Source: an uncultured Thermococci archaeon (GTDB lineage: Archaea; Methanobacteriota_B; Thermococci; Thermococcales; Thermococcaceae). From it: DNA of 59,369 nt. Below are positions 4,790 to 59,369 of this stretch, in pieces (the first letter of the stretch is position 1; each line of letters opens with the position of its first letter). Both the position numbers and the translations under genes were made by a program. The notes under the pieces were generated by a model. It worked only from the letters and a program-made list of their open reading frames with translations, made no database searches and was not told where the DNA came from. The DNA is taken from assembly GCA_964615185.1 (NCBI GenBank), contig CAZTOS010000004.1, forward strand, positions 1-59,369, read 5' to 3'.

Positions 4790-5614
4790 ATGAGATTCAC
4801 AACCAAAAATGAAGCTGTAAAAAATGCCTTTATTAGCGAGCTGAGAGCTGACGGAATAAAATTTGAAGTTAAAGAAAGGCTGGGTTATGAGACATTCATT
4901 GGATACATGATTGAGGGAACCCTTGAAGAAATTAAAGCGCAGATTGATGCTCTAAGCGGTGAAGAAAGGGAAGTTATCCTGAAAGGATTTCAGTCGTTTA
5001 AGGAGCAGCTTAATCATGCTCTTGAACATTTGAAAGAAGGCGACACCCTCGAGAATTTATTGAGTGAGGGCTACTGGATGGCTGATATAATAGATCAGCT
5101 CATGAGGAACTCTGCTCTGGATATTGAGGAGAACAAGGTAAAGCTGAAGGAGGGTATTGATGTCACAAAGCTCAAGTTCCAGTTCCGCTTCCCTTATGAA
5201 TTGGCAAAGCAACTTGATGTTGTGGAAAAAATTGCAAAGCAGTTTGCTTTTATCGATTTAGTTCCTGAGTGGGAGATTGAAATAAGGGAATTTAGGATTG
5301 AGAGAATAAATCGAGCCTTGCACATCGCAGCAAAGTATTTCCCAGAGAAAGATGTCATGAATGTGTACTTTGCTTTGATTGGAAAGTCCATTGTCGCCAA
5401 TGAAATCCTAAAGGCTCTTGGAGATGAAAAGATACCTTTAAATGCTCTTATTGAGGTCTTTTTGAAAGCTTTTCCTCTTGAAATTCCAACGGAAAAAGGA
5501 GTAATGGTAATCAATGCAACCGAGAAGTCTATTTACAGCATTCTAAGGGAGCTTGAGAAGGGTGGATATATTGATATAAAAGGAAACAAAGTCAAAAAGC
5601 TCAGAGAGTTGTGA
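4790..5614 (+). CDS. Conserved hypothetical protein with wHTH-like C-terminus; paralog of 29227-30048
   Basis: GGTGA RBS before ATG 4790; ends ELEKGGYIDIKGNKV. Confidence 0.75.
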   Translation: MRFTTKNEAVKNAFISELRADGIKFEVKERLGYETFIGYMIEGTLEEIKAQIDALSGEEREVILKGFQSFKEQLNHALEHLKEGDTLENLLSEGYWMADIIDQLMRNSALDIEENKVKLKEGIDVTKLKFQFRFPYELAKQLDVVEKIAKQFAFIDLVPEWEIEIREFRIERINRALHIAAKYFPEKDVMNVYFALIGKSIVANEILKALGDEKIPLNALIEVFLKAFPLEIPTEKGVMVINATEKSIYSILRELEKGGYIDIKGNKVKKLREL

Positions 5615-5627
5615 TTTTTCTTTTTTC

Positions 5628-6009
5628 AAGTCTCGCCCTTTAGGGCGGGGTACGAACCACTACCCAATTAGCCTTTAAGCACCGGAACTCTTTTAAACTC
5701 TTGAACGTAGTAAGGCCTCGAAGAGGCCACCGAGGACAAACCCTTTCAAAGAGTTTCATCATGGCCTATCCGTTTGGATAGGCGACGCCGATAGGCGTCC
5801 ACTTTCCACGCCACCCGGCGTGGCCATAAAGACTCCAAAAAGTGGCCTCTAAGCGATAACCCTGAGCCTTCCCGCTCTTGCGGGAGGTAGGGGTAACGGG
5901 GGCAAGACCGTCCCCGAGGGGCTGAAGTTAGGCTATGAAGCCCCTCAAACCTCCCTGTCAATGGCGAGGGGTTAACTCGTTGGAACCCTCGCAAAAGGGA
6001 GGAGGTCAG
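5628..6009 (+). mobile_element. Non-autonomous IS200/IS605-like element with internal promoter and omega-RNA-like 3' end (copy 1)
   Basis: GC-rich with no credible ORF; left-end hairpin CTCGCCC-TTTA-GGGCGGG; right end GGAGGAGGTCAG; colinear with 35557-35937 and 59255-59369. Confidence 0.8.
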
Positions 6010-6012
6010 CAT

Positions 6013-6042
6013 CTGATATATGATGAGTACGGGAGTGTCTGA
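6013..6042 (+). ncRNA. Candidate box C/D sRNA, 3' half (D'-C'-guide-D)
   Basis: CTGA(6013)-TAT-ATGATGA(6020)-12 nt GTACGGGAGTGT-CTGA(6039), canonical archaeal spacing; no 5' C box visible. Confidence 0.5.
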
Positions 6043-6043
6043 G

Positions 6044-6790
6044 CTACCTTTCAATGTAGCATTCAGACATTGCATAATAAAGTGGATGACATACTATACG
6101 CCTCATCTTCGCTTTTCCATTCTTTTTCAACCACTCTAATAACCTTTGGGCAAATTCAAACTTTTTTCTCTTTGATTCCCAGATGGGCGCGTGTTCCCTC
6201 AGATATGGCTTGCTCCACTTTCCGACTATGTCCCCAAAATCAAATCCAACCAAAACTATTTCTTTTGCTCCAAGTTCTTCTGCTAAGAAAGCAGCTCTGT
6301 CCCCATCTGTAAAGCCGCCGAAGTTGTAAACTATGTCTAAAGGTTCTGTTTGGCATGTGCCAAGAACCTTTCCAAGCTGTGGGACGTATTTTCTTATCTT
6401 CTCAATGTTATCTCCATGAGCATGAACCACAATGTAAGCTCCAAGCATGTCAGCTTTCTTTATATCTTCAAAATTTCCATCAAGGTCTGTAACAATGATA
6501 TTTGGAATTACTTCAAATTGCAAGAGAGCAGAAGTTGCACCGTCGGCTGCAATCGTTACTCCATCATGAAAAGAGAGATATTTAAGAGCAAGCTCCAAAC
6601 TTGGTCCAGCTCCAAAAATATATACTTTCCTTCCTTCAAGCATCTCTTTCAAAAAATCAACTTTTATGTAGTTTTTATTTTTGAGAAGTAGATTTTGGAG
6701 AATTTTAGCTGATTCCCTGTCCTTGCTTGTGTCATATCCCATCTCTTCAATAATCTCCATGTAAAAAGGTTTCCAGTTTTGGAACTTCAT
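6044..6790 (-). CDS. mptE: 6-hydroxymethyl-7,8-dihydropterin pyrophosphokinase (DUF115)
   Basis: GAGPSL, IAADGA, VTDLDG, HAHGDN and FGGFTDGDRA motifs. Confidence 0.88.
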   Translation of the reverse strand: MKFQNWKPFYMEIIEEMGYDTSKDRESAKILQNLLLKNKNYIKVDFLKEMLEGRKVYIFGAGPSLELALKYLSFHDGVTIAADGATSALLQFEVIPNIIVTDLDGNFEDIKKADMLGAYIVVHAHGDNIEKIRKYVPQLGKVLGTCQTEPLDIVYNFGGFTDGDRAAFLAEELGAKEIVLVGFDFGDIVGKWSKPYLREHAPIWESKRKKFEFAQRLLEWLKKNGKAKMRRIVCHPLYYAMSECYIER

Positions 6791-34709: not shown

Positions 34710-35542
34710 AGATTAAGCTTTCCCTCCAGTAAATCTCTAACGTATTTTGGCATTTGGAACAGAGTTTCATGCTTTTCGGGATCATAATAAATAAGTTCAA
34801 GCTGCCTTGCCCTTTCCAAATCTATCCTCTCAAAGTCAACATTACCCTTAACTCCAACTAAGAAGCTCCATGGTGAAGCATAGCCAATCACTGGAAAGCT
34901 GAAGTAGTAAACCTTGTCAAACGCCTTTTTCATGGCTTTATGAGCATCTAACAGCTCATTTGTAAAGAGGTAAACACTGCCAGCTTGTGTTATGAGAATC
35001 CCATCATCATTCAATGCATTGTACGCAGCCCTATAGAATTCTTCGCTGAATAACTGCCTTGCTGGTCCAACTGGATCTGTTGAGTCAACAATTACTATGT
35101 CAAACTTCTCGTTAGTATTTTTCACGAATTCAACCCCATCACCAATGACAACTTCCGCTCTCGGGTCATCAAACGCTCCCCTATCAATGCCAAGATAAAT
35201 CTTTGAAATCTCAACAACCATTTCATCAATCTCGACCATAACAGCTTTTTCAACAGTTTTGTGTTTTAAAACTTCTCTAAGTGTGCCTCCATCACCGCCA
35301 CCAATGACGAGGACTTTTCTTGGATTGGGATGAGCTAACAAAGCGGGATGAACTAAGGGTTCGTGGTAGCTTTCCTCTCCCTGCTCTACTAACTGAACAG
35401 TTCCCTCTAAAACCAAAAGCTTTCCAAATCCTTCAGTCTCATAAATTTCAATTCTCTGGTACATGCTTTGGGTCTCAAACAGCTTTTCCTTAATTTTGAA
35501 TGCAACCCCGTAACCTCTTGGATACCACTCTATGAAATGCAT
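34706..35542 (-). CDS. speE: Polyamine aminopropyltransferase (spermidine synthase family)
   Basis: [25 protein letters not shown]. Confidence 0.95.
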
Positions 35543-35556
35543 CCATCTTCACCCTG

Positions 35557-35937
35557 CTGACCTCCTCCCCTTTGCGAGGGTTCTAACGAGTTAACCCCTC
35601 GCCATTGACGGGGAGGTTTGCGGGCTCATAACCTACTCCCGTTGCCGGTTTCGGCTCAGCCCATAGGCCCGGTCTTGGGCCCGTTACCCCTACCGCAGAG
35701 CGGATTGGGGTTATGGTTTAAAGGCCACCCATTGGAGTTTTCAACCGCTTGAAAGCGGTTTTGAAAGGACGCCTTACGGCGTCATCCCTCCCAACGGGAG
35801 GGACACGATAAACCTCTCATCTCATCGGGTTGTTCTTTGGTGGCCTCTCCGAGGCCCTATTACGTTGCAAGAGTTTAAAAGGGTTTCGATTTATAAAGAG
35901 CCGGATTCTCAATTACTGCATCCCCGCCCCGAGACTT
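35557..35937 (-). mobile_element. Non-autonomous IS200/IS605-like element with internal promoter and omega-RNA-like 3' end (copy 2)
   Basis: Colinear with 5628-6009: AAGTCTCG start, CTTTTAAACTCTTG promoter, GACGCC-loop-GGCGTC, TAGGGGTAACGGG, CAAACCTCCC.GTCAATGGCGAGGGGTTAACTCGTT, end GGAGGAGGTCAG. Confidence 0.8.
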
Positions 35938-36052
35938 TCAAGAGAAAAAGTAACATATCTCCATATTTTAGTTTTAAACTTAATGAAAACTAAGGCTATA
36001 AATCAGCTTTCAGAAAAAGACAAAAAGCTGAAAATAACGAAAGTAAAAAGAT

Positions 36053-59254: not shown

Positions 59255-59369
59255 CTGACCTCCTCCCCGCTGTGAACGGCGAGGCTTCCAACGAGTCAAC
59301 TCCTCACCAATGGCGGGGAGGTTTGCGGGCCCATCACCATGAGGTTCAACCCGCAGGCTCGGTCTAAGG
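59255..59369 (-). mobile_element. Right end of an IS200/IS605-like element (copy 3, truncated by the window)
   Basis: Reverse complement ...GCCCGCAAACCTCCCCGCCATTGGTGAGGAGTTGACTCGTTGGAAGCCTCGCCGTTCACAGCGGGGAGGAGGTCAG. Confidence 0.8.

Follow-up and report, generated by a model that had tools for sequence, protein, structure and literature searches.

Three groups of RNAs stand closest to the one described here and are already published: the omega-RNAs of palindrome-associated transposable elements (PATEs), the HgcC and sot RNAs, and the promoter-driven, processed, orfB-related repeats of Pyrococcus. PATEs "often encode" omega-RNAs that require TnpB in trans (Meers et al. 2023 preprint, PMC10055086). 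HgcC (RF00062) and the sotRNA sot0042 (RF02656) are omega-RNA-type transcripts of archaeal IS1341/tnpB genes (PMC4615843, PMC4247193), and in T. kodakarensis two HgcC transcripts that are unlinked to transposase genes have start sites of their own (PMC4247193). In Pyrococcus abyssi, sRkB/sRkC and sRk48/sRk52 are gene-less repeats that give rise to promoter-driven, 5'-processed omega-like RNAs (PMC3124441). The present analysis concerns a stretch of 59,369 nucleotides (nt) from an uncultured Thermococci archaeon of the family Thermococcaceae (contig CAZTOS010000004.1 of assembly GCA_964615185.1), referred to below as the window, in which a first-pass annotation had flagged an unassigned multi-hairpin RNA domain lying in place of the tnpB open reading frame (ORF). 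The flagged stretch is very probably the internal leader of a protein-less IS200/IS605 element of the PATE type, made up of a left end, a promoter, a closed multi-hairpin domain of 129 nt, a 5-nt linker, a TnpB omega-RNA scaffold, a right end and a guide flank. The element belongs to a known kind, but its leader is a module without prior description.

The element resembles PATEs in being protein-less, in having ends common with autonomous copies, in occurring in multiple copies and in inserting after a short transposon-adjacent motif (TAM; PMC10055086). As in PATEs, an omega-RNA scaffold lies at the right end and, by analogy, TnpB and TnpA would be needed in trans (PMC10055086). It differs from them in possessing a 129-nt covarying domain and a left-end promoter between left end and scaffold; an internal RNA module of that kind is unmentioned in the parts of PMC10055086 considered. 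The scaffold aligns to both HgcC and sot0042, carries the same GGAGGAGGUCAG-type tail, and is located at the tnpB 3' end in full copies. Its scores, however, fall below the gathering thresholds (in the window, 18.7 bits against 50 for HgcC and 15.2 against 88 for sot0042), and both models start at or after position 5854, so that the leader lies outside both families. These sub-threshold matches recur, always in the scaffold only, with best scores of 46.3 and 34.1 bits, respectively, among 20 related loci. With the sRk RNAs the element shares the lack of genes, kinship to the 3' ends of orphan OrfB, promoters (predicted in the element) with B recognition element (BRE) and TATA box, and stems that are structured and covarying (PMC3124441), but the sRk RNAs belong to other sequence families, the leader motifs searched are absent from the supplementary alignments of PMC3124441 that were considered, and the sRk 5' parts are described as retained orfB pieces rather than as a separate closed domain. 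Literature searches found no description of the leader domain, and no copy of its motifs is present in 12 of the 15 files of the PMC4247193 supplement.

Fold and covariation of the leader

The leader folds as four hairpins (H0 to H3) enclosed by a long-range closing helix (P1), both in copy A and in copy B of the element (Table 1). The helices named in the first-pass annotation were located at their places in the two copies by sequence inspection. Minimum-energy folds of the whole transcripts likewise show hairpins enclosed by a closing helix, with z scores of -6.88 (copy A) and -6.03 (copy B) against dinucleotide shuffles. When the domain alone was folded at 85 C, P1, H1, H2 and H3 were kept in both copies and H0 was lost, with z scores of -7.2 and -6.2 against mononucleotide shuffles.

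Two covariance models were used, the first built from copy A together with a copy from a different contig that is 91% identical to it, the second from 40 copies. Covariation was assessed in alignments of 40 and of 100 copies (98 of the 100 distinct) that were fitted to the model and are therefore biased toward structure; with MAFFT alone, misalignment hid H1 and H3 from RNAalifold, and model-guided alignments were used instead. The covariation reported from two copies holds at both sizes. With 40 copies, 93.7% of cells are paired, against 80.0% in shuffled and 37-52% in slid controls, double changes occur at 23 of 37 pairs, and the covariation score is 0.360 against 0.149 when shuffled. With 100 copies the corresponding values are 91.9%, 79.6% and 35-48%, with double changes at 25 of 37 pairs and a score of 0.373 against 0.152. 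Neither score was reached by any of 500 shuffles, a test whose significance is overstated since the copies are related. The slid controls and the multiple pair types per position are the stronger argument. The 100 copies have a median pairwise identity of 0.68 and a minimum of 0.48, three or four Watson-Crick types occur at several pairs (such as UA 48, AU 36, GC 8), and the hairpin loops are free to vary in sequence and length as the stems remain paired.

The individual helices behave differently in the 100 copies. The bulk of the covariation signal comes from H1, with double changes at seven of eight pairs and 98% of cells paired, and from H3, with double changes at all seven pairs and 90% paired. 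H0 shows double changes at six of seven pairs, yet just 76% of its cells are paired, and it is a weak helix. H2, the GACGCC/GGCGTC stem, had been called invariant and proves nearly so: only its loop-closing pair switches (C-G 60, U-A 34), and its loop is GNNA in 99 copies. The H3 loop is UUCG in 20 copies. P1 is 94.6% paired, its changes are mainly to G-U, and double changes are found at four of nine pairs in few sequences each; it is conserved, not covarying. Hence the statement that stems change sequence and keep pairing stands for H1 and H3 and falls for the closing helix. The claim of conserved linkers survives in part, two of the three being not conserved. ATCRTG is variable, and ACTCCAA exceeds 70% identity only at the first A and the C of an AAAAC run, its remaining positions being lower. 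Junction sequences are largely variable, with some conserved unpaired bases in the AAAAC run and in a UUU after H0, and the first 16 model positions contain no insertions or deletions. An alternative helix, P2, would pair the 3' strand of H0 and the UUU with the AAAACYC run; with 88.5% of cells paired and one double change it is compatible with the data but unproven, and in the model it is gone at 85 C.

G-U pairs exceed A-C mismatches by 201:95, which fits the sense strand, the same strand as that of the transposing DNA. Selection on a fold is upheld; that it acts on RNA is presumptive, as the ratio fits RNA and a same-sense single-stranded DNA (ssDNA) intermediate alike. Whole transcripts of 94 copies, aligned with MAFFT and scanned, revealed no covarying helix joining leader and scaffold, only invariant complementarities such as that of GGCCUC with the GAGGUC tail, and the leader therefore appears to fold independently.

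As the first-pass annotation had supposed, the domain corresponds to no known Rfam class. Over 5722-5850 no match reaches the gathering level, only chance-level snoRNA and miRNA rows being present at E up to 10, and nothing was found over the leader in any of 20 related loci at E up to 5. A tRNA-like element was considered and rejected: ARAGORN predicts no gene in 5500-6150, no Rfam tRNA row was obtained, and an 18-nt linker separates H3 from the closing helix. A bulge-helix-bulge or circularisation route (PMC12558985) was likewise set aside, no such motif being visible by eye at P1.

The mobile unit, its autonomous relatives and its distribution

The window contains two complete copies of the element, which have the same build, and part of a third (Table 1). 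Copies A and B possess no protein-coding gene: neither shows similarity to TnpA or TnpB, and their lengths are not tied to multiples of three. The region has a G+C content of 53-60%, against about 40% for the window.

Table 1. Features of the elements found in the window, with position, strand and basis of assignment.
Feature	Position	Strand	Basis or remark
Copy A, complete ORF-less non-autonomous IS200/IS605 element, 395 nt	5615..6009	+	Left end from tnpA-tnpB copies on other contigs; right junction from same-genus empty sites
Left terminus of copy A, T-rich	from 5615	+	Read from the sequence
Left-end subterminal palindrome CGCCCT..AGGGCG	5634..5647	+	Also at both ends of the autonomous copy; optional among copies
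Predicted archaeal BRE/TATA-like promoter	5683..5698	+	Sequence motif; TATA-like motif at 5691-5698
Near-invariant palindrome GGCCTCGAAGAGGCC across the predicted start site (about 5719-5721)	5714..5728	+	3' arm is the 5' strand of P1
Structured leader domain, 129 nt	5722..5850	+	Folds and covariation
P1 closing helix, copy A	5722-5730 with 5842-5850	+	
H0 hairpin, copy A	5738-5756	+	Absent from the list of the first-pass annotation
H1 hairpin, copy A	5764-5783	+	
H2 hairpin, copy A	5784-5799	+	
H3 hairpin, copy A	5806-5823	+	
Single-stranded 5-nt linker from P1 to the first scaffold stem	5851..5855	+	Candidate processing site
Omega-RNA-like scaffold, G/C-rich	5856..6009	+	Common with the tnpB 3' end; starts ATAACCC, ends GGAGGAGGTCAG
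Would-be guide flank	6010..6029	+	3' half left over from a C/D box sRNA gene
Copy B, complete element, 393 nt	35557..35949	-	Both junctions from empty sites in 7/7 same-genus genomes
Copy B leader domain	35708..35864	-	Model positions 1-157
Copy B omega-RNA-like scaffold	35557..35707	-	
Copy C, third element with only the last 115 nt (scaffold and right end) present	59255..59369	-	Cut by the end of the window and contig

The site of copy B is uninterrupted in all seven other genomes of the genus and is preceded by a TTAC-like motif; no target duplication was seen. Copy B lies between this motif and the ribosome-binding site of a downstream gene. This gene is a spermidine-synthase-like ORF (35542-34706, - strand), whose own TATA-like motif has been displaced by 393 nt (window 35540-35560 and 35950-35990). 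From the sequence, the outward-reading promoter of copy B may now drive this ORF, with leader and scaffold as its 5' untranslated region. At copy A the right junction is exact in three of six relatives with a match, after TTGAC, and the left flank differs. In three same-genus relatives this site holds a C/D box small RNA gene in intact form, which scores 43.2 bits with snoPyro_CD (gathering score 45) and of which the first half, about 36 nt, is missing to the left of copy A. Only the half past the first guide, with D', C' and D boxes, is kept at 6010-6046 of the window (1418-1473 in the relative locus L177). The source strain has probably lost a C/D box methylation guide for rRNA or tRNA. The left flank of copy A (5560-5614) is nearest, at 90%, to a relative with another downstream arrangement, and three other relatives match at the right flank; on this pattern, copy A was likely the site of a rearrangement or recombination after insertion. 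The leader sits within a unit that moved as a whole. In two copies from different genomes (L069 and L070) the scaffold is broken after about 30 nt by the inverted left end of another element, as in a nested or head-to-head insertion.

The genome of the window possesses about ten tnpB genes and one tnpA. Contig C16 carries a complete IS200/IS605 element with both genes. Its left end, including the CGCCCT..AGGGCG palindrome, matches 5612-5655 of the window, and its tnpB 3' end and right end match 5856-6009. The same left-end segment matches left ends beside tnpB or tnpA-tnpB on contigs C16, C42, C27 and C1, ends or scaffold are common to the IS copies on these four contigs and on C56 and C13, and the scaffold matches the sequence right after tnpB (zinc-ribbon region) on eight contigs. 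It overlaps the tnpB 3' end and stops at the right-end boundary set by the empty sites, where the would-be guide follows. In all six tnpB-bearing copies examined, homology with the short element starts exactly at ATAACCC. No match to the leader was found in the C16 element by blastn, tblastn, sensitive blastn or a covariance model with filters off, and the second model, with filters off, gave no full-length match at 11 tnpB loci. Because the full copies share ends and scaffold and lack the leader, the leader is taken to occupy the place of tnpA and tnpB in the full element, and its earlier description as lying in place of the tnpB ORF is borne out.

A TATA-like motif is found inside the tnpB coding sequence, in a conserved C-terminal motif, 15 nt before ATAACCC in all six copies (C16, C42, C27, C1, C56 and C13). 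By analogy it fits the internal start sites of HgcC1-3 in T. kodakarensis (PMC4247193), and the scaffold of full-length elements would then be transcribed as a primary RNA. The CGCCCT..AGGGCG palindrome is found in copy A at the left end only, in copy B at neither end and in the autonomous copy at both. Its presence is independent at left and right ends across copies (window 5634-5647, 5990-6000 and 35925-35935). Either TnpA binds a hairpin other than this palindrome, or many of the copies cannot move. Open frames of 421 and 418 amino acids (C31:6469-7700 and C69:8232-9500) represent a second tnpB type that is more distant, and one tnpB of this type lies 1.6 kb from a leader-bearing element, not joined to it.

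The first model has 14 matches in the genome of the window and matches in 43 of 97 genomes of the family. With the second model the domain was detected in 49 of 133 genomes of the phylum, every one of them in a single family, and in none of the 36 genomes from five other families; at least 150 copies are present among the matches listed. The assembly of the window is divided into 138 contigs, many of which end inside copies of the element or its tnpB-bearing relatives (C45:1, C42:1, C99:1, the end of C120, C5:1, C114:1 and the window end at 59369). This repeat family is thus a main reason for the breaks in the assembly, and the copy numbers are minimum values. A right-end tail lies 117-171 nt past the domain in 94 of 100 copies, the other six being cut by contig ends or interrupted by a nested left end. 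Among these 100 copies no gene was found between leader and scaffold, and no free-standing leader apart from this element was encountered. TnpB matches (E up to 1e-20) are present in 41 of the 43 domain-holding genomes against 32 of 54 others, a comparison in which kin genomes are not independent samples, and two complete genomes possess the domain without a TnpB match. TnpA is matched in just 21 of the 43, in some cases distantly. The 17-nt H2 motif also occurs in four IMG/VR contigs, where the model is matched by the hairpin alone.

Possible roles of the leader

A stabilising leader is the simplest reading, since a gene-less omega-RNA cannot load as the nuclease is made and must wait for TnpB. 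According to this reading the BRE/TATA promoter within the element would drive transcription, the start lying 2 to 3 nt before P1, and the RNA 5' end would at once be buried in the 9-bp helix that closes a thermostable four-hairpin fold. The leader would protect the RNA from 5'-end-dependent decay and would keep the G/C-rich scaffold, with its many GGGG and CCCC runs, from mispairing. The omega-RNA might then persist until TnpB from another element binds it in trans, and the TnpB complex would cut the empty site (TAM and flank), so that the element is more likely to be retained. Cleavage in the linker, ahead of ATAACCC, may later remove the leader. Trimming of guide-RNA 5' ends by TnpB is reported (Nety et al. 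2023, as cited in PMC12558985), and by analogy the linker would lend itself to such cleavage. In 29 of 40 copies a regular expression places the start of the TATA motif 13 to 16 nt (mostly 15-16) ahead of domain position 1, and in the remaining 11 it gives no match or a distant one; in T. kodakarensis the TATA box lies at a median of 23 bp upstream of mapped start sites (PMC4247193). From this spacing and that median, the predicted start falls just before P1. Taken jointly, identity and mechanism form the best explanation, held at a little short of an even chance; the idea that the leader stabilises or insulates an omega-RNA awaiting TnpB is, on its own, tentative and somewhat less probable still.

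Several observations weigh against a stabilising leader. P1, the helix on which the mechanism leans, shows little covariation. The near-invariant palindrome GGCCTCGAAGAGGCC at the start site would rival P1 if transcription began further upstream. Candidate roles for this palindrome are those of an operator, of a hairpin in DNA, or of an alternative hairpin formed in read-through RNA; the sequence of its 5' arm is that of the P1 3' strand, and in a few copies the three strands change jointly. Transcription and its start are predicted from a motif and its spacing. The tnpB-bearing copies, with their TATA-like motif 15 nt before ATAACCC, manage without the domain, and the leader is accordingly dispensable to the scaffold. 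One or both end palindromes are missing from many copies and a TnpA match is missing from 22 of the 43 domain-holding genomes, so that many copies may be inert. Finally, a single origin followed by spread accounts for the fixed linkage without any function.

IS200/IS605 elements move as top-strand single-stranded DNA, and the fold might act at that stage, with hairpins of the top strand, excised or on the lagging strand, shortening the end-to-end distance or shielding the strand and so raising excision or insertion by TnpA. A same-sense DNA strand would yield the same covariation and G-U bias as an RNA, and since the palindrome at 5714-5728 coincides with the predicted start or precedes it, its conservation is a matter of the DNA. 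Such a role is nevertheless unlikely, as the element is short already, the tnpA-tnpB copies transpose without the domain, a consensus promoter is aimed into it at fixed spacing, UUCG and GNRA-type loops are stability motifs of RNA, and G-T pairs weaken DNA hairpins at 85 C. The UUCG and GNNA loops and the G-U bias are weak hints for RNA over DNA. It is similarly improbable that the leader is a small RNA or protein platform of its own, freed by cleavage in the linker, with H2 and its GNNA loop as a recognition site for L7Ae or another ribonucleoprotein component. A near-invariant H2 amid covarying neighbours would suit this role, as would the tandem GA motifs that many copies carry in the H0 loop and the finding that other transposase-related RNAs of P. 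abyssi bind L7Ae and are 5'-processed (PMC3124441). Those RNAs, however, belong to different sequence families, no K-turn conserved across the family was found, the H0 loop differs among subtypes, and none of the copies found stood away from an omega scaffold, with 94 of the 100 linked to one and six cut or nested.

The domain could also be a neutral passenger that arose once with a gene-less derivative and spread along with it, its covariation reflecting a few subfamilies. The fixed linkage to a single element, the inflation of shuffle tests by kin copies and the inert look of many copies are all consistent with this view. It is rendered rather more doubtful than the two preceding roles by the three or four Watson-Crick types at several pairs, by pairing of 98% in H1 and 90% in H3 at the identity observed, far from the slid controls, and by loops that vary freely beside stems that stay paired. 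That the leader is a self-cleaving or self-processing RNA, releasing the 5' end of the omega-RNA, is less probable again. Its position is its sole support: a multi-helix junction with the conserved unpaired AAAAC run and UUU stands just upstream of the scaffold, and TnpB-linked omega-RNAs need 5' processing (Nety et al. 2023, as cited in PMC12558985); yet no Rfam ribozyme family matches at E up to 10, the junction sequences are mostly variable, and TnpB itself is reported to carry out the processing. A decayed tnpA/tnpB remnant is scarcely credible. One weak model match (13.6 bits, E 0.01-0.06) falls in the N-terminal part of tnpB on two contigs, but no tblastn alignment of TnpA or TnpB with the 100 copies was better than E 0.066 and the positions were scattered over both strands, blastn likewise gave scattered matches, copy lengths modulo 3 are distributed 36/35/29, stop-free frames occur near the chance rate, and the stems covary. 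The first-pass annotation had preferred selection on a fold to decay of a transposase gene, and on this point the larger alignments, the Rfam searches and the protein comparisons agree with it.

Within the reading of the leader as a stabilising module there is a broader version, in which it belongs to a novel class of RNA modules that would license omega-RNAs acting in trans by keeping a free guide RNA intact and properly folded until TnpB from another element is at hand; such modules would have arisen in gene-less derivatives, perhaps more than once in unrelated lineages, and might be equipped with a processing activity or protein handle of their own. This would be an unlikely outcome.

The leader, an RNA domain absent from Rfam, occurs in roughly half of the Thermococcaceae genomes covered by the searches. 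Cas12 guide RNAs descend from TnpB omega-RNAs, which are now being engineered as very small genome editors. If the stabilising role is true, the leader could serve as a transferable 5' module that stabilises or insulates guide RNAs at high temperature. If the fold works in ssDNA instead, it would add a new cis element to peel-and-paste transposition. As a natural thermostable leader on omega-RNAs that are unlinked to tnpB, it would, if the stabilising role holds, show how selfish guide RNAs survive apart from their nuclease.
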